Below are positions 2,247 to 52,370 of a stretch of DNA of 64,000 bases, piece after piece. Numbering within the stretch: position 1 is the first letter of the stretch; every line of letters begins with the position of its first letter. The notes below the pieces were generated by a model, which saw only the letters and a program-made list of their open reading frames with translations, had not been told where the DNA came from and did not search any database. The stretch comes from an uncultured Gammaproteobacteria bacterium. GTDB taxonomy: Bacteria; Patescibacteriota; Patescibacteriia; Magasanikbacterales; GWA2-37-8. A program made the translations under genes and the position numbers. The stretch covers positions 121,081 to 185,080 of the forward strand of contig CAZHYJ010000001.1 of assembly GCA_964536725.1 (NCBI GenBank), in the 5' to 3' direction.

Positions 2247-3269
2247 ATGCGCGTTGCGTTTACCTATAATGTTCGTCATGTTAAACCTGATATCAATAAT
2301 CCACAATACTTGAAAGAAGCGGAATTTGATGAGCCAGAAACAATCGAGGGGATTACTAAAGCTTTGAAAGAGTTGGGGCACGAAGTGATAAAAATAGAAG
2401 CGGATGAATTTGCTTTTGAAAAATTGCGAGCGGAAAAAAATAATATAGATATTGTTTTTAATATTGCCGAGGGGGCAAACGGAGCTGATCGCGAAGCGCA
2501 GTTGCCGGCAATTATGGAGATGTTGCAGATTCCATATACTGGACCGAAGCCGTTGGGCTATGCGGTTGGTTTGAATAAATCAGTGGCCAAAGAAATTTTG
2601 TCATATTATAAAATTGCGACACCGCATTGGATGACAGTAAATAAGATTGATTATCTGGATAGTCATGATTTTAAACATTTTCCGGCTATTGCGAAGCCGT
2701 TGGGCGAAGGTTCAAGTAAAGGAATTAGAGCTAAGAATTTTGTTAATAATGAAGAGGAGTTAAAAAAAGTAGTCAGTGATTTATTGGTTGAGTTTAATCA
2801 ACCAGTATTGGTAGAAGAGTTTCTTCCCGGACGTGAATTTACTGTGGCGGCGATTGGCCATCCGACACGAATTTTACCAATCGTGGAAATAGTTTTTGAT
2901 GCACTACCTGCTGGGATGCCAGCTTTTGACCATTATGAGGCCAAATGGATTTATGATAATCCGGAGGGGCCAGACCCACTAATTTGTCCGGCCAATATTT
3001 CTTCAGAATTAAAAGAGAAAATTGAACACCTGTGTTTAGAGGCTTTCAATGCTCTGGAAATGGAGGATTGGGCACGTTTTGATATTCGTTTGGATAAAAA
3101 TGGTGAGCCTAATTTTATTGAAGTAAATTGCCCGCCTGGGATTATTCCTGACCCCAAAGAAAATTCTCGTTTTCCTCGTGCAGCACGAGCGGGTGGTCTG
3201 GATTACGCCCAAATGATTGAAGAAATATTGCGATCATCCTGTTCGCGGTATGGGTTAGAATATAAATAA
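2247..3269 (+). CDS. ATP-grasp ligase of the Ddl family, paralog 2
   Basis: 340 aa ORF starting 3 nt after paralog 1. Carries LQIPYTGPKPLGYAVGLNKSVAKEIL, AIAKPLGEGSSKGI and PVLVEEFLPGREFTVAAIG, which match the Ddl KP..EGSS.G and VLVEEF.GRE.T motifs. Confidence 0.7.
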   Translation: MRVAFTYNVRHVKPDINNPQYLKEAEFDEPETIEGITKALKELGHEVIKIEADEFAFEKLRAEKNNIDIVFNIAEGANGADREAQLPAIMEMLQIPYTGPKPLGYAVGLNKSVAKEILSYYKIATPHWMTVNKIDYLDSHDFKHFPAIAKPLGEGSSKGIRAKNFVNNEEELKKVVSDLLVEFNQPVLVEEFLPGREFTVAAIGHPTRILPIVEIVFDALPAGMPAFDHYEAKWIYDNPEGPDPLICPANISSELKEKIEHLCLEAFNALEMEDWARFDIRLDKNGEPNFIEVNCPPGIIPDPKENSRFPRAARAGGLDYAQMIEEILRSSCSRYGLEYK

Positions 3270-3276
3270 CTGTTTT

Positions 3277-4212
3277 ATGCTTTTGTATACTCCATTATCT
3301 CCACAATTAAAAAAACTGTCGACTGTCTGTCGTGAGATTAACAAACAGTTTGTTCCAAGTAAAGTTGAAGGTCAGAATGAAAGTAAAACTTTTGTGGATC
3401 CATTATGTGAAGATGAGCACACTGTTTGTCGTGGTTTGGTCCACAAGTATCCTAATCGTGTATTGGTGTTGTTGACCATGCGTTGTGCCGCCTATTGTCG
3501 TTTTTGCACCCGACGAAGAATGGTTTCGGAGGTTGAGCAAGGTATGGTGACCGAACATGATTTGGACAAGATGGTGGTGTATATTAAAAAACACTCAGAG
3601 ATAAAAGAATTGATTTTTTCTGGCGGCGATCCTTTGGTGGTGCCGGATTTATTAAAACGTGCTTTGAAAAAATTAGGTGGTTTGCCACAAATTAAAATAA
3701 TCCGCGTGGGGACAAGATTGCATTTTTCTAACCCGGCATTGGTGGATAAAAAAGTTTTAGACGCCTTGCGAACAGTGAAAAACAAGCCATTGTATTTAAT
3801 GGTCCACTTTGAACATCCAAGTGAATTAACCGCGGCAACTAAACGTGCCGTTAAATTATTACAATCAGTTTCAACAATGTTATTGTCACAAACGGTTTCT
3901 TTGCATGGCGTAAATGATTCCGTTGACACTTTGTACAATCTTTTTTCTGGCTTGATTGAAATTGGAGTAAAGCCGTACTATCTATTTCGCTGTGATTTAG
4001 TTAAAGGAGCAGAACACTTTTTGGTTGATTTTAAAAAAGAACGAAAAATTGTTAGTGAACTGCGTCGGCAATTGAGTGGTATCGCTATGCCTTTGTATGT
4101 GATAGACGTTCCAGGTGGTAATGGTAAAATTCCAGTGCCACTTGATTTTTGGCCGCTGGCCGATGGAGTTAAATATCGTGATTTCTTGGGTAAATTAAAT
4201 AAAATCGTGTAG
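3277..4212 (+). CDS. KamA-family radical SAM (PLP-dependent) amino acid 2,3-aminomutase (lysine 2,3-aminomutase / EpmB-like)
   Basis: 311 aa ORF 8 nt downstream of the second ATP-grasp gene. Contains VHKYPNRVLVLLTMRCAAYCRFCTRRR, a CxxxCxxC cluster in the HKYP..RVL...C..YCR.CTRRR context diagnostic of the KamA family (compare LAM ...CSMYCRHCTRRR). Confidence 0.75.
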   Translation: MLLYTPLSPQLKKLSTVCREINKQFVPSKVEGQNESKTFVDPLCEDEHTVCRGLVHKYPNRVLVLLTMRCAAYCRFCTRRRMVSEVEQGMVTEHDLDKMVVYIKKHSEIKELIFSGGDPLVVPDLLKRALKKLGGLPQIKIIRVGTRLHFSNPALVDKKVLDALRTVKNKPLYLMVHFEHPSELTAATKRAVKLLQSVSTMLLSQTVSLHGVNDSVDTLYNLFSGLIEIGVKPYYLFRCDLVKGAEHFLVDFKKERKIVSELRRQLSGIAMPLYVIDVPGGNGKIPVPLDFWPLADGVKYRDFLGKLNKIV

Positions 4213-32582: not shown

Positions 32583-32591
32583 ATAATAATG

Positions 32592-32665
32592 TGTCAGAGG
32601 AGAGGATCGAACTCTCGACCTTAGCGTTATGAGTGCTACGCTCTAACCAACTGAGCTACTCTGAC
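32592..32665 (-). tRNA. tRNA-Met (anticodon CAT; elongator Met or lysidine-modified Ile2)
   Basis: Reverse complement GTCAGAGTAGCTCAGTTGGTTAGAGCGTAGCACTCATAACGCTAAGGTCGAGAGTTCGATCCTCTCCTCTGACA folds as a cloverleaf with a 7 bp acceptor stem, a GCTC/GAGC D-stem, the CTCATAA anticodon loop and a TTCGATC T-loop. Confidence 0.8.
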
Positions 32666-32770: not shown

Positions 32771-33052
32771 TTACAAAACAGCTTCTTTAGCAGCTTTGGC
32801 AACGCGGAATTTAACCACGGTCTTAGCTGGGATGTTGATACTCTCGTTGGTTGCTGGATTGCGACCAATACGAGCAGCACGCTGCATTTTCACCAATTTG
32901 CCAAGACCTGGCACGATGAATACACCACTCTTCTTCACCTCTTTGTAAGCCAACGTTACCATTGCGTCCATGAAGCCTGCAACGTCTTTTTTACTTAGGC
33001 CAGTTGTTTCTGCCATTGCAGAGATCAAGGCCGACTTGGTTAGACCTGCCAT
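32771..33052 (-). CDS. HU/IHF-family DNA-binding protein
   Basis: 93 aa. RAARIGRNPATNESINIPA matches the HU arm motif R.AR.GRNP.T...I.IPA. Confidence 0.8.
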   Translation of the reverse strand: MAGLTKSALISAMAETTGLSKKDVAGFMDAMVTLAYKEVKKSGVFIVPGLGKLVKMQRAARIGRNPATNESINIPAKTVVKFRVAKAAKEAVL

Positions 33053-33784: not shown

Positions 33785-35554
33785 TTGCCTGTTATGGCCA
33801 CGCTTTTAAATATTGAAAAATTGGCAAAATCCTACGGCCCGCGTGTTATTTTTAAAGACGTTACTTTTGCTGTTAATGAAAAACAAAAAATCGGCCTCAT
33901 CGGTCGCAATGGTGCAGGTAAGTCAACTTTGCTACGCATGATTCTTGGGGATGAGGAGGTAGATTCGGGTACGATATTTTTGCACGATATTGTACGTCTG
34001 GGCTATGTGGAACAACATGAAAAAATTGATCTCACCCAAACAGCTTTGAGTTATTTAGAAACGCAAACCAACCAACCAGCCTGGCAATGTGCAAAAGTGG
34101 CCGGTAAATTTGAATTAAAACCATATCATTTAGATCAGACTATTTCTGAGTTGTCCGGTGGCTATCGGATGCGTTTAAAGCTGGCATGCATGTTGCTCAA
34201 AGATCCAAATTTGTTTTTGCTGGATGAGCCGACCAATTACCTCGATGTGCATACCCAAATTTTATTAGAAAAGTTTTTGCAAAATTACAACGGTGCTTTT
34301 ATCATCGTTTCGCACGACCGTGAATTTCTTAAACGCACCTGTGAACAGACTTTGGAAATTGAACAGGGTGGTATCATCTTTTACCCACGGCCGATCGATG
34401 AATATTTAGAATACAAAAAAGAACGGTTGGTTTCGATTGAAAGTTATAACAAAAAAATTGACCGTGAGCAAAAACATTTGCAAGATTTCGTTGACCGTTT
34501 TCGCTACAAAGCCAGTAAAGCAAAGCAGGTGCAGAGTAAATTGAAAGCGATTGATCGTTTGGAAAAAATTGCGGTGAATGATCCGTTGGCGAATGTGCGT
34601 ATTAGTATTCCGGGAGTGGAGGATAGAAAGGGGATATTGTTCCGGGCGAAAGATTTGGTTATCGGCTATCCAGAAAAAACGGTAGCGACGAAGATAAATT
34701 TGGATATTGAGCGCAAAGAAAAAATTGCGGTTATCGGTGATAACGGTCAGGGCAAGACGACGTTGCTAAAAACTTTTGCCTCGGTTTTGTCACCGATCAG
34801 TGGTGTATATAAATGGGCGCCGGATACAAAGATTGCTTATTATGCTCAGCATGTGCCAGCAGAATTGGATAGTGCAGAGCTGGTTTGGAGATATTTGCGC
34901 AATAGTGCGCCGCTCGACATTGACGACGAGGAAGTAAAACGCATGGCGGGTAATTTTTTGTTTGATCGTGATGAATTAGAGAAAAATATTTCGATGTTGA
35001 GTGGTGGCGAACGCGCGCGACTTTGTCTGGCGGGATTGCTTTTAACCAAGAGCAATGTTTTACTATTGGATGAACCAACCAACCATTTGGATTTTGAAAC
35101 TGTAGAGGCGCTCGGTCGGGCACTGCGAAATTTTGTTGGTACAGTTATTTTTATCAGTCACAACCGAACTTTTGTAAACTCTATTGCCACTACTATCATA
35201 GAAGTAAAAGATGGGGGAGTCTTGCGCTATCCCGGTAGTTATGAGGATTATATCTATTACCTAGAAAATTCGGCAGCGCCAGTAAAGGTTGAAAAAGATG
35301 TTGAGACTGTCGAAGCAGTGGTTGCTCAACCAAAACAAATAGATGAACTTAAAAAACAAAAAAAGGAATTAAAAAAACTAGAGGAAGAAATTGTTGAATT
35401 AGAAAAAGAGAAAAATCGTCTAGCGAGAAAGCAAGCGAAAAATCCGGCTAAATTTGCGCATGAAGGCTATGTCCGTTTGGGTGAGGTGATAAAGATCATA
35501 GAAACCAAAGAAGCGGAGTGGATTAAATTGGAAGAATTAGTGGGTAAAAATTAA
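33785..35554 (+). CDS. ABC-F family ATPase (two tandem ABC domains, no TM domain)
   Basis: Two Walker A motifs (GRNGAGKST; GDNGQGKTT), two ABC signatures (LSGGYRMRL; LSGGERARL) and a C-terminal coiled coil. Confidence 0.85.
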   Translation: MPVMATLLNIEKLAKSYGPRVIFKDVTFAVNEKQKIGLIGRNGAGKSTLLRMILGDEEVDSGTIFLHDIVRLGYVEQHEKIDLTQTALSYLETQTNQPAWQCAKVAGKFELKPYHLDQTISELSGGYRMRLKLACMLLKDPNLFLLDEPTNYLDVHTQILLEKFLQNYNGAFIIVSHDREFLKRTCEQTLEIEQGGIIFYPRPIDEYLEYKKERLVSIESYNKKIDREQKHLQDFVDRFRYKASKAKQVQSKLKAIDRLEKIAVNDPLANVRISIPGVEDRKGILFRAKDLVIGYPEKTVATKINLDIERKEKIAVIGDNGQGKTTLLKTFASVLSPISGVYKWAPDTKIAYYAQHVPAELDSAELVWRYLRNSAPLDIDDEEVKRMAGNFLFDRDELEKNISMLSGGERARLCLAGLLLTKSNVLLLDEPTNHLDFETVEALGRALRNFVGTVIFISHNRTFVNSIATTIIEVKDGGVLRYPGSYEDYIYYLENSAAPVKVEKDVETVEAVVAQPKQIDELKKQKKELKKLEEEIVELEKEKNRLARKQAKNPAKFAHEGYVRLGEVIKIIETKEAEWIKLEELVGKN

Positions 35555-35567
35555 AGTAAAAATGAAG

Positions 35568-35595
35568 AGGGCGGAGCCGTAGTCGGCTCCGCCCT
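35568..35595. terminator. strong GC hairpin (bidirectional terminator) at the boundary of the GC-rich islet
   Basis: agggcggagccg-tagt-cggctccgccct is a 12 bp perfect stem, flanked by tttg on the plus strand and A runs on the minus strand. Confidence 0.55.
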
Positions 35596-35611
35596 TTGTT
35601 GTTCTCCTTTT

Positions 35612-36421
35612 TTAGCAGTTGATGATTCGCGTCGAGCGGTTGGCCAGCGCCAGCAGCTCTTCGTTTGTGTAGGTCTTGTGCACGACTTCCTTCCAGTCGT
35701 GACCCGCAAAGTTCGGGTCGAACGGGTTGACCGATCGAACCCAGCCCATGTGGGGCAGGACATGTTTGGAGTCGAACGGGTCGACCCGAGTGTAGTGTAT
35801 CACCTGACCGTTGCCGATCTTGAACCATGCCGGGTCCTCGATGTCGAGTGCATGGTATTCGTCGGCCATTATCCGGTCGAAGGTGACACGCAAGGCACGC
35901 ATGACGTCGCCGTGTGATACGATGATTACCTTCTTGTCCGCGAGCTCCCGGTGAAGGGTGCTGAGGATATTGTTGCGGAGTCGGTCACAGGTATCCGCCA
36001 TGGACTCTCCGTCAGGCCAGGGGGCGTAGAACAGATGTCGCCTCCGGTAAGCCAGATAGTCGGCGAACTGTTCCTGACGGACATCATCGGGGATGATGTC
36101 GACGCGTCCGTGGTCGCGTTCGCGGAGCTGGAAGTCAACGTACCAGTCAGCACCGGGGAGGTTGAGCAGGGCGGCAGTTTCGAGAGCGCGGGCGTACTCG
36201 GAGACGTAGTGGCGGTCGAACTGTGCCAGGCCGTTGTCCTTCAACCACTGCCCAGCAGCCTTGGCCTGCGCCTTGCCTTTCTCGGTGAGGCGGAGTCTGG
36301 CACTGTGGCGGTTGAGGAACTCGGGAGTGAAATCCCGGTTGTCCCCGTCGCGCGAGTGCTTGTTGGCGATGTTGCCCTCAGACTCGCCGTGACGAATCAG
36401 TACCAAGTCGAGCGGAAGCAT
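35612..36421 (-). CDS. histidine phosphatase superfamily protein (phosphoglycerate mutase-like), encoded in a GC-rich islet
   Basis: N-terminal LIRHGESEGN (RHG catalytic motif) and a later SHGDVMRAL; 269 aa. Local GC is about 58%, against about 38-40% in the flanks. Confidence 0.7.
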   Translation of the reverse strand: MLPLDLVLIRHGESEGNIANKHSRDGDNRDFTPEFLNRHSARLRLTEKGKAQAKAAGQWLKDNGLAQFDRHYVSEYARALETAALLNLPGADWYVDFQLRERDHGRVDIIPDDVRQEQFADYLAYRRRHLFYAPWPDGESMADTCDRLRNNILSTLHRELADKKVIIVSHGDVMRALRVTFDRIMADEYHALDIEDPAWFKIGNGQVIHYTRVDPFDSKHVLPHMGWVRSVNPFDPNFAGHDWKEVVHKTYTNEELLALANRSTRIINC

Positions 36422-36514
36422 GTGTACTCCTGCGTTTTTAGAGATCTGGCGAGATGTTACTATATTAGAAGTAAATAGTCAAAGGCTTAGTTTAGTTGAG
36501 AGTGTAAAAACCAC

Positions 36515-36541
36515 GTTGACAGTTAACTGTTGACTGTCAAC
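36515..36541. promoter_or_regulatory. 27 bp palindrome gttgacagttaactgttgactgtcaac (candidate operator or recombination site) adjacent to the GC-rich islet
   Basis: Two 9 bp arms, gttgacagt and actgtcaac, flank the central cagttaactg; it contains two TTGACA hexamers. Confidence 0.35.
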
Positions 36542-36560
36542 CTTTCTTGGTTTATCAATA

Positions 36561-36657
36561 AAACAAAAAAGAGACTTTGTTTTCACAAAATCCCTTTTGG
36601 TAGACCACCCCATTGACCGTTGGAACCTTTTCTTTAGGGAGATAAAGGAATGGGCTA
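36561..36657. repeat. modular intergenic element, copy A (aaaacaaaaa box + hairpin + conserved gtagaccac...ccattgaccgttggaacctttt block)
   Basis: Shares a block of about 55 nt, ~85% identical with a 22 nt perfect run, with copy B at 38100-38155. On the minus strand it reads as a hairpin plus gtttttgtttt immediately after the MTase stop codon. Confidence 0.6.
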
Positions 36658-36666
36658 ATTTAATTT

Positions 36667-37284
36667 CTACTTTTTCTTTGCCAGTATGATTAGTTTGTTG
36701 TAAGGTAGCTCTCCTTTTAGGTGTGGTGTTTTTTTATCAACAGACAAAATTTCAAAATCAGATGACAATATTTGTTTGGCCTGTTCTTCTGTGTAAAGAT
36801 TTAGAAATAGTTTTTCACCAGGTAATAAAGGCTCGTCTACAAATACTTCGCCTTCTCCTTCCTGTAATATCAAAAAAATAATCCCACTTGTTTTTAATAG
36901 TGAAGTGATTTTTTCTATAATTTTTGAAACATCCTTCTTCTCTAGATGAAATAGGGAATATGCCAGAGATATTCCGTCAAAAGTGTCGTTAAAGTTTATT
37001 TTCCGAATATCTCCTAATCTAAAGTCGATTTTAGGATATTTGTTTTTTGCTATCTCCAGCATTTTTGGTGACAAATCAACACCTGTTACGTCAAATCCTT
37101 TATCGAAATAATATGAGGTGACTCTACCTGTACCACACCCCAAATCTAAAATTTTATTTCCGGTGGTAATTTTTGATAAAAATTTATCCATGTATGGGTT
37201 ATCTGATAGGTCATTATCAAAAAGGTTGGCGTATTGAGTTGCAATTTTGTTATATACATCTATAGAACTTTTTGAGTTATCCAT
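36667..37284 (-). CDS. class I SAM-dependent methyltransferase (Methyltransf_11/UbiE-like)
   Basis: Motif I ILDLGCGTGRVT, then post I DVTGVDLS, motif II/III. Confidence 0.7.
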   Translation of the reverse strand: MDNSKSSIDVYNKIATQYANLFDNDLSDNPYMDKFLSKITTGNKILDLGCGTGRVTSYYFDKGFDVTGVDLSPKMLEIAKNKYPKIDFRLGDIRKINFNDTFDGISLAYSLFHLEKKDVSKIIEKITSLLKTSGIIFLILQEGEGEVFVDEPLLPGEKLFLNLYTEEQAKQILSSDFEILSVDKKTPHLKGELPYNKLIILAKKK

Positions 37285-37526: not shown

Positions 37527-37961
37527 CTACATGTTCTTTAAATTATCCACAATAGATTGGGCAGCTTCAACTTGCTTTTTGTATAATTCAAAGCCTTCAT
37601 TAGAATCGACCAGTTTTCTCGCGGTATTAACTTTGGCTTCTAAAACAAGTACAGCGTTTTTCATTTCAGAAATTCTTCGTTGCTGATTTTTATATCCCCC
37701 ACCATACTTCTCATCCTCATGAAATACAATAATAAAACTGTTGCGAAACAATTCAATATCTGTTTTAATTTCACTTATAGCTTTTTGAATAGAGGAAAAA
37801 TCTGGTGCTGTTTCCTGAAATAAATCGTTTCCTTCAAAAAAACGTTTACTTATTTCCTCTAATTTTGACTCTTCGGCTGTGACTTTCACATCACCTGTTG
37901 CCACTTCTACTGGAGGATGCCAATTTGCATGATCCTCATTTCCAAGTATTTTATCAATCAT
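37527..37961 (-). CDS. hypothetical protein
   Basis: 144 aa ORF with no recognisable motif, bracketed by copies B and C of the modular element. Confidence 0.3.
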   Translation of the reverse strand: MIDKILGNEDHANWHPPVEVATGDVKVTAEESKLEEISKRFFEGNDLFQETAPDFSSIQKAISEIKTDIELFRNSFIIVFHEDEKYGGGYKNQQRRISEMKNAVLVLEAKVNTARKLVDSNEGFELYKKQVEAAQSIVDNLKNM

Positions 37962-38058: not shown

Positions 38059-38157
38059 CAAAACAAAAACTGCACCATTTTGAAGATGCAGTCCTTTAAA
38101 GTAGACCACTCCATTGACCGTTGGAACCTTTTGTTTGAAGAGATAAAGTATTGGAAT
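38059..38157. repeat. modular intergenic element, copy B
   Basis: aaaacaaaaac + hairpin ctgcaccattttgaagatgcag + agtagaccactccattgaccgttggaaccttttgtttgaagagataaag. Confidence 0.6.
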
Positions 38158-38187
38158 ATTGTTATAAATAGCATGTTTGTCATTTAG

Positions 38188-38704: not shown

Positions 38705-38776
38705 TTTTTTCTTGTAGCCCCAACGAGAATCGAACTCGTATTTTCTCATTGAAAGCGAGATGTCCTAACCATTAGA
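38705..38776 (-). tRNA. tRNA-Glu (anticodon TTC)
   Basis: Reverse complement GGCCTCATCGTCTAATGGTTAGGACATCTCGCTTTCAATGAGAAAATACGAGTTCGATTCTCGTTGGGGCTA shows the TCGTCTA..GG..AGGAC and CTTTCAA anticodon-loop pattern typical of bacterial tRNA-Glu, plus a T-arm ACGAG/TTCGATT/CTCGT. Confidence 0.8.
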
Positions 38777-38887
38777 CGATGAGGCCGTTTGTCGATGTTG
38801 CATAGTATATCAAAATTTACGAAAAGGTCAAGTCTGGTGAAAACAAAAAAATCCCCACGAGCGTTCTCTTGGGGATTTTTAAACTAT

Positions 38888-39169
38888 TTAACTGTGTTTT
38901 AAGGCATCTTTGAGAGCCTTGCCGGCTTTGAATTTTGGAACTTTTACTGGTGGGATTTGAATCTTTTCCGTAGGTCTTTGTGGGTTCACACCAGTGCGTC
39001 CAGCGCGTTGTTTTACCGAGAAAGCGCCGAAACCAGTCAACACAACTTCCTCGCCTTTTTTCAAGGTATCCATGATAGTGTCAACCAAAGTGTTGATCAT
39101 ATCTTCGGCTTCACGTTTGGAAACGTTTAACTTCTCTGCTAAAACTTGTGCTAATTCAGCTTTGTTCAT
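38888..39169 (-). CDS. hup: DNA-binding protein HU
   Basis: 93 aa. LTGFGAFSVKQRAGRTGVNPQRPTEKIQIPPVKVPKF is canonical HU. Confidence 0.85.
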   Translation of the reverse strand: MNKAELAQVLAEKLNVSKREAEDMINTLVDTIMDTLKKGEEVVLTGFGAFSVKQRAGRTGVNPQRPTEKIQIPPVKVPKFKAGKALKDALKHS

Positions 39170-39315: not shown

Positions 39316-40857
39316 TTAACGGGCATATTCGATTACGCGAGTTTCACGGATAATGGTAACGCGAATCTCACCAGGGTATTGTAACTCTTCTTCAATTTTG
39401 TGAGCGATATCTTTGGACAATTGAACGGCGGCGTAATCATCAATTTCATTTGGTTTAACAAAGACGCGGATTTCACGGCCAGCCTGGATAGCGTACACCT
39501 TATCAACACCAGGGAAGCCAGTAGCAGTCTTTTCCAATTCTTCCAAACGAGCAACAAAGTGTTCATAAGTATCCTTGCGGGCACCAATGCGTGAGCCAGA
39601 GATGGCATCAGCGGCTTTGACGATGGTTGCATAGACGCTCTGGGGTTTATCAAGATGGTGATCGCGTGCGGCCTGGCAGATATCTTCGTCAGCATTAAAT
39701 TTCTTCAAAATGGTATAGCCAATCTCTGGGTGAGAGCCTTGGGTTTCTTGGTCGACAGCTTTTCCGATATCGTGGAACAAACCAGCTTTCTTGGCCTTGG
39801 CCTGGTCTAAGCCGAGTTCAGCGGCGATCAAAGAGGAAAGGTGACCAACCTCCATGGAATGGTTCAAAATGTTTTGACCGTAGGAAGTACGATATTTCAA
39901 ACGACCAACAATGTTTACCAGTTTTGGATCGATACCGGTGATGGCCATTTTGTACAAAGCCTCTTCGCCGGCTTTTTTAATATCTAGTGATAAATCCTGT
40001 TTGGCTTTTTCTACAAACTCTTCAATGCGAGCCGGTTGGATGCGACCGTCCGCCATTAATTTTTCTAACGACAAACGTGCCACCTCGCGGCGGATAGGGG
40101 AGAAACAGGAAATCATGATGGACTCAGGAGTGTCGTCGATGATCAATTCACAGCCGGTTAATTTTTCAATGGTTTTAATATTGCGTCCTTCTTTGCCGAT
40201 AATACGCCCCTTCATTTCTTCACTTGGTAAGGTGACGATAGAGGAGGTAGTTTCTGCAGCGTGGGAGGAGGCGGTGCGTTGGATGGCGTCGAGAATAATC
40301 TCGCGAGCCTTGTCTTCAAATTTTTCTGAGGATTCGCGGTCGAGTTTAATCATGCGTGCCAACAAGTCATTTTGACTTTCTTCTTCTACCATTTTCAAGA
40401 GCTCCATTCGGGCTTCTTCGTTGGTCATGTTTGCCACGGTTTGGAGTTTATCAAGTTGCTGTTGTTTTAAATCCTCGATCTCTTGTTTGATTAGTTTTAC
40501 GCGTTCGATCTTTTCTTGCAATTTGGTCTGATTGTCTTGTAACTCCAAAAGTTTTTGGTCAAAAGCATTCTCACGTTTTTCCAAACGTTGTTTTTCGTTG
40601 TGTAATTCTTGGTTGATCTGCTTTTCTTCACGTTTGGCTTCCTCGATGATTTTAACGGCTTTTTCTTTGGCTTCCAAGATGTATTCTTGTTGCTTAGTTT
40701 TGGCCTCAATCAGCATGCGTTCGGCCTTGGCTTCCACCGAATTGGCTTGGGCCTGGGCTAGTTTCTTGCGTAAAAAGTAGCCAAACACAAAACCACCGCC
40801 TACGCCGACGATAGCGACTATCAAATTAATTAATCCATTCATATACAAAAATTTCAA
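39316..40857 (-). CDS. rny: ribonuclease Y
   Basis: An N-terminal TM helix, a coiled coil, a KH domain and an HD domain (LFHDIGKA); 513 aa. Confidence 0.85.
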   Translation of the reverse strand: MKFLYMNGLINLIVAIVGVGGGFVFGYFLRKKLAQAQANSVEAKAERMLIEAKTKQQEYILEAKEKAVKIIEEAKREEKQINQELHNEKQRLEKRENAFDQKLLELQDNQTKLQEKIERVKLIKQEIEDLKQQQLDKLQTVANMTNEEARMELLKMVEEESQNDLLARMIKLDRESSEKFEDKAREIILDAIQRTASSHAAETTSSIVTLPSEEMKGRIIGKEGRNIKTIEKLTGCELIIDDTPESIMISCFSPIRREVARLSLEKLMADGRIQPARIEEFVEKAKQDLSLDIKKAGEEALYKMAITGIDPKLVNIVGRLKYRTSYGQNILNHSMEVGHLSSLIAAELGLDQAKAKKAGLFHDIGKAVDQETQGSHPEIGYTILKKFNADEDICQAARDHHLDKPQSVYATIVKAADAISGSRIGARKDTYEHFVARLEELEKTATGFPGVDKVYAIQAGREIRVFVKPNEIDDYAAVQLSKDIAHKIEEELQYPGEIRVTIIRETRVIEYAR

Positions 40858-49940: not shown

Positions 49941-52370
49941 ATGAAAAAATACGATCACAAATCAATTGAAAAAAAATGGCAGAAATATTGGGAGAAAAAC
50001 GAAACATATAAAACCAAAGAGGGTGGCGACAAGCCAAAATATTATATTCTAGATATGTTTCCGTATCCGTCTGGCGTCGGTTTGCATGTCGGTCATCCGA
50101 AAGGATATATCGCAACCGACGTTGTAGCACGAATGAAAATGATGCAAGGATATAACGTACTCCATCCAATGGGTTGGGACGCGTTTGGTTTACCAGCGGA
50201 AAATTACGCCTTGAAAAACAAGGTCCATCCAGCAATCTCAACCGAACATAATGTTGAAAATTACAAAAATCAACTCAGTTTACTTGGTCTGACATATGAT
50301 TGGAGCCGAGAATTAAACACCACTGATCCGAAGTTCTACAAATGGACACAATGGGCATTCGTTCAAATGTTTAAACGCGGTTTAGCGTTTGAATCTTATG
50401 AACCAATTAATTGGTGTCCAGAGTGTAAGACTGGTTTGGCAAATGAAGATTTGGAAAATGGGTTGTGCGAACGCTGCGGTAGTCAGGTGGAGCAGAAGCC
50501 AATGCGCCAGTGGGTTTTAAAAATTACTGATTACGCAGAACGCTTGCTTAAAGATTTAGATCAATTGAAAGATTGGCCAGAGTCGATAAAAACAATGCAG
50601 AAGGAATGGATTGGAAAAAGTGAAGGAGCGTTGGTGAGTTTTGGTATCAAAGGATTAGAAGAAAAGTTGGCAGTGTTTACTACGCGGCCTGATACTTTGT
50701 TTGGAGCGACATATTGTGTGTTGGCACCAGAACATGCTTTGGTGCAAAAGTTGAGTGAGAAGATTGAAAATTGGGACAGTGTTGAAAAATATATTGCTCA
50801 AGCCCAAAAGAAAACTTCTTTAGAGCGTACTGAGTTACAAAAAGAAAAAACTGGTGTCGAACTAAAGGGGGTTAAGGCAGTGAATCCAGTTAACAATGAG
50901 GAATTGCCAATTTTCATTGCTGATTATGTTTTGACTGGCTATGGCACCGGTGCGATCATGGCAGTGCCGGCGCACGATGAGCGTGATTTTGAATTTGCGA
51001 AGAAATATGAATTACCAATCAAGGAAGTTTTGAAAGGTGGAGACGTAAACGTTGCTGCTTTTACTGAAGACGGTGTCCATGTTAGTTCTGAATTTTTAGA
51101 TGGGCTTAAAAAAACAGAGGCGTTAGAAAAAATAATCACCTGGTTAGAGGAAAAAGGATTAGGACAAAGAAAAATACAATACAAATTGCGTGATTGGGTA
51201 TTTTCTCGCCAGCGTTATTGGGGCGAACCAATTCCGCTTGTCCATTGTGAAAAATGTGGTTGGGTATCGGTTCCGGAAAATGAGCTACCTTTAGAATTGC
51301 CAAAAGTAAAAAATTACGAACCAAGTGGAACAGGGGAATCACCATTGGTAAATATTACGGATTGGGTAAATACCAAGTGCCCAACATGTGGTGGTCCAGC
51401 TAAACGTGAAACCAACACGATGCCGCAGTGGGCGGGTTCTTCTTGGTATTACTTAAGATATATTGATCCACAAAATGATGCGGCGTTGGTTGACAAAGAA
51501 AAAGAAAAATATTGGCTTGGCTCGCCGAAGCTGGGCGAAGGCGGCGTGGATTTGTATGTGGGCGGTGCTGAGCATGCCACACGTCATTTAATCTATGCGC
51601 GTTTTTGGCATAAGTTTTTGTTTGACATTGGTGTGGTAAGTTATTCCGAACCATTCACTCGTTTACAAAATGTTGGCTTGGTTTTGGCTAGTGACGGCAG
51701 AAAGATGAGTAAGCGTTGGGACAATGTAATCAATCCGGATGATGTGGTAGAAGAATACGGTGCTGATTCTATGCGCCTGTACGAAATGTTTATGGGCCCA
51801 TTTGATCAACCATGTTCTTGGAGCATGCAAGGATTAGTGGGGATGAAAAGATTTTTAGAAAAAGTTTGGTTATTGCAGGAAAAAGTTGGCGAGAAAGTCG
51901 AGGTTGATTCCAAACTAACTGTTCTTTTGCACCAGACGATTAAAAAAGTTACCGAAGATATTGAATCACTACGGTTCAATACCGCCATTTCTCAACTCAT
52001 GATTCTTGTTAACGAATTAGCAAAAACAGAATCGGTTAGCGAAGAGATGTATTCGACTTTGATCAAATTACTTTCTCCGTTTGTACCGCATTTTTCTGAT
52101 GAGCTATTTGAGCAGTTAAACGGTAAAGGCACAGTATTTGAATCCGATTGGCCAAAGTATGATGTTGATCTAACAAAAAATGAGACGATGACTTTGGCGG
52201 TACAGATCAATGGGAAATTGCGCGATACTTTGGAAGTGTCAGCTGATATTTCTGAAGAGGATGCGAAGAAGATGTCTTTGGAATCAGAAAAAGTTATCAA
52301 GTGGTTGGAAGGTAAAGAGCCCAAGAAAGTTATTTACGTTAAAGGTAAGTTGGTGAGTATTGTGGTGTAA
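49941..52370 (+). CDS. leuS: leucine--tRNA ligase
   Basis: The HIGH motif region PYPSGVGLHVGHPKGY and the KMSKR-type region KMSKRW; 809 aa. Confidence 0.9.
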   Translation: MKKYDHKSIEKKWQKYWEKNETYKTKEGGDKPKYYILDMFPYPSGVGLHVGHPKGYIATDVVARMKMMQGYNVLHPMGWDAFGLPAENYALKNKVHPAISTEHNVENYKNQLSLLGLTYDWSRELNTTDPKFYKWTQWAFVQMFKRGLAFESYEPINWCPECKTGLANEDLENGLCERCGSQVEQKPMRQWVLKITDYAERLLKDLDQLKDWPESIKTMQKEWIGKSEGALVSFGIKGLEEKLAVFTTRPDTLFGATYCVLAPEHALVQKLSEKIENWDSVEKYIAQAQKKTSLERTELQKEKTGVELKGVKAVNPVNNEELPIFIADYVLTGYGTGAIMAVPAHDERDFEFAKKYELPIKEVLKGGDVNVAAFTEDGVHVSSEFLDGLKKTEALEKIITWLEEKGLGQRKIQYKLRDWVFSRQRYWGEPIPLVHCEKCGWVSVPENELPLELPKVKNYEPSGTGESPLVNITDWVNTKCPTCGGPAKRETNTMPQWAGSSWYYLRYIDPQNDAALVDKEKEKYWLGSPKLGEGGVDLYVGGAEHATRHLIYARFWHKFLFDIGVVSYSEPFTRLQNVGLVLASDGRKMSKRWDNVINPDDVVEEYGADSMRLYEMFMGPFDQPCSWSMQGLVGMKRFLEKVWLLQEKVGEKVEVDSKLTVLLHQTIKKVTEDIESLRFNTAISQLMILVNELAKTESVSEEMYSTLIKLLSPFVPHFSDELFEQLNGKGTVFESDWPKYDVDLTKNETMTLAVQINGKLRDTLEVSADISEEDAKKMSLESEKVIKWLEGKEPKKVIYVKGKLVSIVV

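Follow-up and report, generated by a model that had tools for sequence, protein, structure and literature searches.

A GC-rich histidine phosphatase gene in an AT-rich Magasanikbacteria genome is probably a long-standing resident rather than a recent import

Where recent gene transfer is judged from composition, the standard evidence is an atypical GC content and codon usage, which is used routinely on metagenome-assembled genomes. The amelioration of compositionally atypical transferred genes is described by the model of Lawrence and Ochman (1997), as cited in PMC12455944. The stretch of contig CAZHYJ010000001.1 that was analysed here over its full 64,000 nucleotides (the window) carries a gene of this appearance, encoding a histidine phosphatase. 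Like horizontally transferred islets, it is one gene with GC content and codon usage far from those of its genome, it is located between tRNA genes, and its inferred ancestry is GC-rich. Unlike such islets, it shows its anomaly in all clade orthologs at syntenic positions, where the anomaly has outlasted the near-saturation of synonymous sites. Moreover, the TrmB-family gene that adjoins it in related loci is not GC-rich, the estimated equilibrium of its synonymous sites is around 0.6-0.7 compared with a host level of around 0.38, and the searches for mobility genes, flanking repeats and a donor were all negative. The gene is probably a long-standing, vertically inherited Magasanikbacteria gene whose GC-rich codon usage is gene-specific and persisting, and not a recent import. 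The textbook signature of transfer would then be a false positive for recency. The gene and the hairpin that follows it are located as follows.

35612-36421, minus strand: coding sequence of a 269-aa branch-1 histidine phosphatase (open reading frame list, Pfam, alignments, AlphaFold, Foldseek/HMM comparison)
35568-35595, no strand assigned: GC-rich hairpin, predicted intrinsic terminator (terminator scan on both strands, folding, ortholog covariation)

The minus-strand reading frame starts with MLPLDLVLIRHGESEGN and has a GC content of 0.599 (0.64, 0.38 and 0.78 at the three codon positions), compared with 0.403 for the window outside it. In 300-nt windows, the GC content is 0.36 before the stop codon of the neighbouring ABC-F gene (35250-35549), 0.55-0.63 over the islet (35550-36449) and 0.34 directly after it (36450-36749). 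Apart from the two 1-kb blocks holding the islet, no block exceeds 0.453. The extent of the GC-rich stretch corresponds approximately to the coding sequence plus the hairpin, with AT-rich intergenic flanks on either side. An earlier reading made from the sequence alone (the sequence-only reading) had described such an islet with a 269-aa minus-strand histidine phosphatase frame; the windowed calculation, with its abrupt rise and fall, and the Pfam match (PF00300, E=3.4e-28) bear out both. For 37 other window genes, the third-position GC content (GC3) averages 0.379 ± 0.045 and peaks at 0.469; the phosphatase lies 8.9 standard deviations above this mean. Its codons are those of high-GC bacteria (CTC/CTG, CGC, GAC, AAC, AAG): CTC and CTG make up 0.81 of the Leu codons (0.13 in host genes), GAC 0.85 of the Asp codons (0.28) and AAG 0.82 of the Lys codons (0.24). 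Both the base composition and the codon usage are thus atypical in the way expected of a genomic islet.

Taken alone, the sharp change in composition would also fit an assembly chimera, in which a high-GC fragment of another organism is joined into a low-GC contig. However, an identical protein is encoded on contigs of six sequencing runs from at least three run series (Logan assemblies L001-L006), and these independently assembled contigs carry the gene and its flanks at 99.84-100% identity, spanning one or both junctions. Contig L001 (4.8 kb) is 100% identical to the window and spans the methyltransferase, phosphatase, ABC-F, PAP2 and HU genes. Contig L002, from a different run series, is 99.84% identical and crosses the ABC-F junction, and the palindrome-side flank is included in all six. 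Since an equal low-high-low GC pattern is present at orthologous loci in at least 12 other assemblies, the probability of a chimera, which had been raised earlier, is negligible. The window holds the housekeeping genes for DnaE, PheT, LeuRS, IF-2, TypA, RNase Y and TsaD, and the best named relatives of its LeuRS are Candidatus Magasanikbacteria at ~72% identity. These genes identify the host, as judged from sequence, as a Candidate Phyla Radiation (CPR)/Patescibacteria (Magasanikbacteria) genome of ~40% GC.

The composition of the phosphatase was compared with that of its relatives by means of the GC excess (gene GC minus flank GC) and of dGC3 (gene GC3 minus that of neighbouring open reading frames). 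Trees were built by neighbor joining, with 85 family members and then with 22 clade members. Over 80 loci of species-representative genomes the excess averages +0.04, and it reaches +0.10 to +0.16 in the closest relatives. All members with a large excess fall in one clade. In its core, all 12 members have an excess of +0.11 to +0.22; the sister groups have +0.03 to +0.08 (+0.03 to +0.07 for the sister taxa L174 and L176), save L012 at +0.16. Among 109 loci the median dGC3 is +0.04, and the window has the highest value, +0.37. The GC-rich anomaly therefore belongs to the clade and not to the window genome alone.

The gene environment has also been retained. In the window and in the loci L090, L091 and L092, whose proteins are 77-82% identical to that of the window, the phosphatase lies upstream of orthologous PAP2 and HU genes. 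The genes inserted between them vary from ABC-F to a metallo-beta-lactamase-fold gene, alone or together with an MFS gene, and may be missing altogether. ABC-F neighbours the phosphatase in the window lineage only. Locus L093 (78% identical) contains RNase Y (76%), HU (80%), tRNA-Glu, a serine-recombinase island, TrmB, the phosphatase and tRNA-Met, and its phosphatase sits in the same tRNA-Glu to tRNA-Met interval as that of the window. In ten related loci, including the distant L012, L021 and L172, the phosphatase is adjoined by a divergent 240-aa TrmB-family gene (PF01978). The pairwise identities of TrmB and phosphatase are correlated (r=0.88, 28 pairs, phosphatase identity 39-81%). In nine such gene pairs, TrmB has a GC3 of 0.30-0.51, at or below host level, and the adjacent phosphatase 0.51-0.90. 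At four-fold degenerate sites, identity exceeds that expected from composition by 0.09-0.15 for RNase Y, PAP2 and TrmB and, in the same genome pairs, by 0.18-0.34 for the phosphatase; the phosphatase has therefore diverged in parallel with these host genes, at a slightly lower rate in its silent sites. It is a resident, syntenic gene that co-diverges with the genes around it.

The sequence-only reading had proposed a recent horizontal acquisition from a high-GC donor, as a one-gene islet bordered by a hairpin and a palindrome. Its attraction lies in the abrupt step of +20% GC limited to one gene, in codon usage typical of high-GC bacteria and in a position within a variable interval between two tRNA genes. 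Orthologs at 77-82% identity, however, share the neighbourhood and the anomaly in other genomes: the gene is present, syntenic and GC-rich in 12 of the 12 clade members sampled, its four-fold sites are as diverged as those of neighbouring host genes, and TrmB beside it has a host-like composition. The donor search in both trees found no high-GC lineage as sister to the clade. Family members of truly high-GC bacteria match their hosts in composition and are placed elsewhere in the tree, and the window gene nests among Patescibacteria homologs. The best database matches are all of Patescibacteria type, none above 82% identity. No direct repeats bracket 35560-36545, and neither an integrase or transposase beside the islet nor an insertion at a tRNA 3' end was found; the immediate neighbours are the ABC-F and methyltransferase genes, and the tRNA genes are 2.2 and 2.9 kb away. 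A phage reservoir was not detected either, as tblastn against phage records returned no match and the best relative on IMG/VR viral contigs has 34% identity. The hairpin, moreover, was inherited together with the gene. A recent import is, all in all, very improbable.

The persistence of the high GC content was analysed with a non-stationary two-state (G/C versus A/T) maximum-likelihood model of synonymous third positions on the clade tree, with branch lengths proportional to protein distances and a single equilibrium GC, f*, for all branches. The estimated f* is 0.58-0.68, and the root frequency of G/C (S) is ~1.0 in the rooted nine-taxon fit and in all rate-heterogeneity fits. A host-like f* of 0.38-0.40 is rejected with nine taxa (likelihood ratio 38-39, p=9e-10), with seven taxa whose hosts have 37-43% GC under gamma-distributed rates (likelihood ratio 18, p=2e-5), and also when four-fold, NNY and NNR sites are taken one class at a time. 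For PAP2, used as a control, f* was 0.26. The GC excess is clade-wide, and the synonymous-site equilibrium of ~0.6-0.7 is far above host level. This model replaced a parsimony polarisation of the changes between G/C and A/T (W), which was considered unreliable because the outgroups are near saturation.

Translational selection of the host does not account for the GC content. The HU genes, which reflect the translational preference of the host, favour NNC codons, yet they keep A-ending NNR and T-ending four-fold codons. The G-ending NNR fraction of 0.76 and the four-fold G+C of 0.73 in the phosphatase are therefore left unexplained by it. A mosaic structure or recombination between alleles was rejected too, as sliding-window identity gave no clear breakpoints.

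High GC3 could also be imposed by an overlapping gene on the opposite strand, since sense third positions are antisense first positions. A 175-aa frame at 35951-36478 is indeed codon-aligned with the phosphatase, L093 and L007 likewise have an open antisense frame of 155-168 codons, and the sense codons TTA, CTA and TCA number 41 where 85 are expected. However, a like depletion (92 versus 133) occurs in family members without GC excess. Stops are scattered among the orthologs (codons 23, 60 and 85 in L091; 36, 60, 65, 130 and 156 in L011; 99, 123 and 130 in L015), and no open region is common to them. An antisense gene was excluded on this ground and is hardly credible. The many overlapping six-frame frames of the islet are by-products of its high GC content, as had been supposed.

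Native coding sequences were compared with synonymous shuffles of unchanged protein, codon usage and exact dinucleotide counts. The phosphatase mRNA of the window has a folding z of -3.85, with none of 80 shuffles as stable, and 16 other window genes range from -2.05 to +2.1. Family members with a GC excess of at least +0.11 have a mean z of about -2.9 (10 of 15 at or below -2), compared with about -0.4 for the others (3 of 29). Over a set of 36 of these genes, the two groups differ at p=3.5e-5 (Mann-Whitney) and Spearman's rho is -0.63. The same effect is seen in L071 and L020, GC-excess lineages outside the clade, and the sense strand has a more negative z than the antisense strand in eight of eight cases.

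The proposed history starts from a very GC-rich ancestor (root ~1.0), possibly by way of an ancient transfer. From then on, amelioration would have been resisted by some force at the synonymous sites, so that the GC richness persisted through speciation beside adjoining co-inherited genes of AT-rich host composition. The preferred candidate for this force would be selection for a stably folded, long-lived mRNA; codon-mediated translational control and GC-biased conversion are the alternatives. In the lineage leading to the window, a palindrome-bearing region may have replaced the TrmB control region of the ancestor, and ABC-F may have been inserted downstream. The islet would be a self-contained single-gene unit composed of an operator-like palindrome, promoter, Shine-Dalgarno sequence, coding sequence and terminator of its own. 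We tentatively suggest that, in the TrmB-linked phosphatase lineage, synonymous sites are actively kept at a GC3 0.2-0.4 units higher than that of the genome, for long enough that the protein has diverged to ~40% identity. The gene would then be a compositional island, maintained by selection or conversion, that mimics transfer, and a strongly folded, long-lived or slowly translated transcript would be the selected property.

If such maintenance is real, one protein-coding gene can have a compositional equilibrium of its own within a small, AT-rich genome, which bears on methods for detecting horizontal gene transfer and on synonymous-site constraint in CPR bacteria. Properties of the transcript of a widespread TrmB-associated phosphatase, and not the protein alone, may be under selection; on the selected-transcript reading, a metabolic gene of a streamlined CPR genome would carry, within its coding sequence, a second, RNA-level layer of function or control. 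The protein and its regulatory elements are conventional. An anomaly that persists beside host-like, co-inherited neighbours is not predicted by current thinking on amelioration.

Several observations weigh against active maintenance. The fit with four taxa and invariant sites, in which the test loses power, does not reject f*=0.40 (p=0.08). L091 and L011 are visibly decaying, and the sister taxa L174 and L176 are near host composition. With the root at ~1.0, this means that amelioration does occur and that the plateau could partly be a modelling artefact. The model itself ties branch lengths to protein distances and applies one f* throughout, and the GC content of ancestral hosts may have differed from that of present ones; the trees are neighbor-joining gene trees of proteins 40-80% identical. 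As for folding, the signal is missing in five GC-excess members (L175, L021, L012, L011 and L007, z -0.6 to -1.1), conserved base-pairing within the coding sequence was not found by RNAalifold in ten orthologs (covariation term -0.08 kcal/mol), and z-scores in 90-nt windows are diffuse, with no position in common. Faster mutation of unpaired bases could produce such a signal neutrally. The excess folding stability thus offers a lead and does not amount to a demonstration.

A rival explanation is one ancient transfer, from a very GC-rich donor to the clade ancestor, followed by slow, neutral and incomplete amelioration with no maintaining force. The root frequency of ~1.0 would be its starting point; GC3 varies among lineages from 0.59 to 0.90 with sister lineages near host composition; the parsimony-polarised counts show an excess of S-to-W changes in L091, L015 and L092; and the four-taxon fit does not reject a host-like equilibrium. 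Against it, the adjacent, co-diverging TrmB is host-like in nine of nine pairs, down to 39% phosphatase identity, and host genes are near saturation at four-fold sites over the same splits. Fits with and without rate heterogeneity, and those for each codon class, reject a host-level equilibrium (p=1e-9 to 2e-5), and neither tree places a high-GC lineage as the sister of the clade. Slow amelioration alone is therefore considered unlikely, though well short of implausible.

The hairpin has the features of bidirectional intrinsic terminators: a GC-rich stem-loop, A-rich on one side and T-rich on the other, between convergent stop codons. It has a 12-bp stem (10 G-C pairs) and a 4-nt loop, and is flanked by the purine-rich AAAAAGGAGA and, on the opposite side, by a U/C-rich tract. 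Its folding free energy is about -29 kcal/mol (z -7.2) on the minus strand and -30.4 kcal/mol (z -5.9) on the plus strand. It lies between the ABC-F and phosphatase stop codons, which are 57 nt apart, and passes the terminator scan on both strands. A hairpin is found just 3' of the phosphatase stop in 11 of 11 orthologs examined, with compensatory changes: 92.9% of alignment cells are paired compared with 78% in shuffles (0 of 500 reaching this) and 30-46% in slid controls, and double-change cells number 20 where 6.4 are expected. With a stem-loop and U-rich tract right after the stop codon, it is predicted to be the ancestral terminator of the phosphatase gene itself. The position and stem reported in the sequence-only reading are correct, but the hairpin is not an islet boundary, as it is conserved after the gene, with compensatory changes, in 11 orthologs. 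Unlike ordinary bidirectional terminators, it would have arisen for the phosphatase alone; with ABC-F inserted downstream in convergent orientation as a later neighbour, it is predicted to terminate in both directions and serve both genes. In Rfam 15, the region 35500-36700 gave only sub-threshold, hairpin-driven matches (L20_leader, 27.9 bits versus 58.7 required). A Shine-Dalgarno-like AAGGAGG occurs right after the phosphatase stop, 5' of the terminator stem (window 35596-35611; also L090, L091, L092, L093, L175, L010 and L015). It pairs with a CUUCUUC/CCUCUUC tract 3' of the stem and lengthens the helix.

The region upstream of the phosphatase contains four candidate elements.

36567-36598, minus strand: terminator-like hairpin downstream of the methyltransferase gene (-14.9 kcal/mol, z -3.4)
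36515-36541, no strand assigned: 27-bp imperfect palindrome, GTTGACAGTTAAC-T-GTTGACTGTCAAC, operator-like (sequence analysis)
36454-36482, minus strand: candidate sigma-70-like promoter, TTGACT-17 nt-TAACAT (consensus scan, 9/12 matches)
36427-36431, minus strand: Shine-Dalgarno sequence AGGAG, separated by 5 nt from the ATG at 36421 (read from sequence)

Along the minus strand, the order is thus methyltransferase stop, terminator-like hairpin, palindrome, TTGACT-17-TAACAT, AGGAG and ATG. The terminator-like hairpin is predicted to isolate the phosphatase as a monocistronic unit. The candidate promoter, a consensus match located ~33 nt upstream of the start codon, is one of three promoter-like sites in the region (0.8 expected). 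Orthologs have AAAGGAG(G/A) at the same place as the Shine-Dalgarno sequence. The palindrome lies where it had been reported, with its centre ~60 bp upstream of the -10 hexamer, but it is not perfect: its 13-nt arms, 1 nt apart, are 92% complementary, giving three mismatches to its own reverse complement. An alternative reading is a series of four GTYRAC hexamers repeated in 7-nt phase. The search for further copies that had been called for found none of the palindrome or its half-sites elsewhere in the 64-kb window (0 expected) or in orthologous loci. Among fetched loci it is present in the same-strain contigs L001-L006 only, and it therefore looks like a putative, lineage-specific operator-like site. 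The earlier idea of a regulatory site is reasonable given its position between the upstream terminator-like hairpin and the candidate promoter.

In related loci, the control region resembles that of TrmB-family sugar-responsive regulators with divergent targets. The 240-aa TrmB gene is divergent from the phosphatase in the ten loci, with two inverted repeats, one near each gene. These TGTAT-N9-ATACA-like repeats occur in two copies between TrmB and the phosphatase in L090, L092, L093, L011, L173, L010 and L015; an example beside the TrmB start is ATGTATATTAAAAGATACAC, with a second copy, TTGTATATATTTTAATACATA, nearer the phosphatase. They are probably TrmB operators, and their presence at both genes suggests autoregulation of TrmB together with control of the phosphatase. 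Neither the TrmB gene nor the repeats are present in the window, which differs from TrmB systems in having the 27-bp GTTGAC-type palindrome in their place.

The phosphatase protein matches Pfam PF00300 (His_Phos_1) with 99.1 bits against a gathering cut-off of 21.7 (E=3.4e-28), over residues 6-195 and profile positions 1-172 of 194. It shares its fold and its catalytic residues (the RHG His, a second His, two Arg and a Glu proton donor) with GpmA, the PFKFB Fru-2,6-bisphosphatase (F26BPase) domain, PhoE, the glucosyl-3-phosphoglycerate phosphatase Rv2419c and the phosphoserine phosphatase PspA. The catalytic set R10-H11-G12, N17, R78, E101 and H170-G171 is kept across the family: R10, H11, N17, R78, E101, H170 and G171 are invariant in a 27-sequence alignment, and in 36 clade sequences the first six are invariant and G171 nearly so. 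The AlphaFold (AF2) model (predicted local distance difference test, pLDDT, 94.7; predicted template modelling score, pTM, 0.91) has a phosphoglycerate-mutase-like alpha/beta/alpha fold. Foldseek matched it with probability 1.00 and E ~1e-13 to structures of dPGM, F26BPase, Rv2419c and PspA. The protein is thus, as predicted from its intact catalytic set, an active branch-1 histidine phosphatase.

The solved PF00300 relatives (F26BPase domain, dPGMs, Rv2419c, PspA) are only 20-25% identical. In contrast to them, the protein has ~65 extra C-terminal residues (about residues 205-269), a family-specific beta-rich extension with GWVRSVNP...AGHDW that no PDB match covers; the TM-score normalised to the query is ~0.6. 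The best PDB sequence match is an F26BPase domain (E=1.4e-18, residues 44-180, ~25% identity), and unlike PFKFB the window protein has no kinase domain. The N-terminal motif of F26BPase is RHGESE(L)N, which RHGESEGN of the phosphatase resembles. No NCBIfam equivalog cut-off is reached (best NF002339, 74.2 bits versus 316), and the dPGM equivalog TIGR01258 scores 52.1 bits against a cut-off of 81.7. Around the catalytic Glu and the second His, the protein reads E101-R102-D103-H104-G105 and H170-G171-D172, in a comparison made by eye and not by structural superposition. The dPGMs of E. coli and yeast have Tyr two residues past the ER pair and Asn after the HG pair, where the phosphatase has H104 and D172. 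With these differences and the sub-threshold scores, the protein does not qualify as a GpmA equivalog; it is probably a sugar-phosphate or phospho-metabolite phosphatase and not a phosphoglycerate mutase.

The family is widespread: it gives 344 protein database matches, and species-representative genomes, mostly of Patescibacteria, contain at least 485 loci. Several homologs carry the JGI name 'NAD+ kinase', which is unsupported because PF00300 is the sole domain detected, and is probably a propagated misannotation. The PADLOC defence models gave no match to the phosphatase, and in PHROGs it matches only a generic His_Phos family of unknown function, phrog_12933. A full-text literature search returned no account of this phosphatase family in CPR bacteria, nor of a persistent GC-rich gene.

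The wider interval around the phosphatase contains the following genes.

32591-32665: tRNA-Met (the tRNA genes are 2.2 and 2.9 kb from the islet)
36667-37284, minus strand: S-adenosylmethionine (SAM)-methyltransferase gene of an AT-rich module
37527-37961, minus strand: gene for a hypothetical protein of 144 aa, same module
38714-38786: tRNA-Glu, at the other end of the variable interval

The description of an accessory-looking segment near tRNA genes holds for this variable tRNA-Met/tRNA-Glu interval, which in L093 contains a large serine-recombinase island. In that locus, a 506-aa large serine recombinase (2369-3889; Resolvase, Recombinase and Zn_ribbon_recom domains) lies by tRNA-Glu (2335-2409) and is followed by NUDIX, DUF488 and deoxyribosyltransferase-like genes. 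The window has the methyltransferase module in its interval and lacks the recombinase there. The island at tRNA-Glu marks this side of the interval as a predicted integration hotspot.

In the window, copies of a 74-nt direct repeat at 36591-36664 and 38092-38165 lie on either side of the module, which is 1.5 kb long with a GC content of 0.28-0.34; the copies are 78% identical overall and 97% over a 32-nt core. The same core, over ~46 nt (GTAGACCACyCCATTGACCGTTGGAACCTTTT...), occurs once in L093 (7353-7401), in the same tRNA-Glu to tRNA-Met interval and orientation. It is this AT-rich methyltransferase module, and not the GC-rich gene, that looks like a recent insertion. The repeat could mark a cassette junction or serve as a shared leader. 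The methyltransferase matches PADLOC mad2 (mads_2) with E=3.2e-22 over the SAM-methyltransferase core, which is probably generic methyltransferase similarity.

In most clade members, the distance between the phosphatase stop codon and a tRNA gene is ~90 nt to 2.2 kb (L010 6749-6823 and 7837-7911; L015 10920-10994 and 11598-11670; L012 11469-12549; L093 10904-10980; L011 13045-13130). Three loci have tRNA-Val(CAC) and tRNA-Arg(GCG) downstream, one has tRNA-Met, and another has tRNA-Ser(CGA) on the opposite strand. G/C-ending codons are read by several of these tRNAs, which may be a coincidence.

Two divergent HU-family (Bac_DNA_binding) paralogs flank the interval, at 32771-33052 by tRNA-Met and at 38888-39169 by tRNA-Glu. 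Both have an NNC preference of 0.67-0.69 compared with 0.22-0.29 in typical genes, which is consistent with high expression. Many LeuRS homologs of Magasanikbacteria are 940-1320 aa long, with extra NUDIX (PF00293) and/or alpha/beta-hydrolase (PF00561, PF06821, PF12146) domains; that of the window (49941-52370, 809 aa) is unfused. The four-fold sites of RNase Y (39316-40857) have C at 0.47 and G at 0.06, a strong C-over-G bias that is absent from the other tabulated genes.

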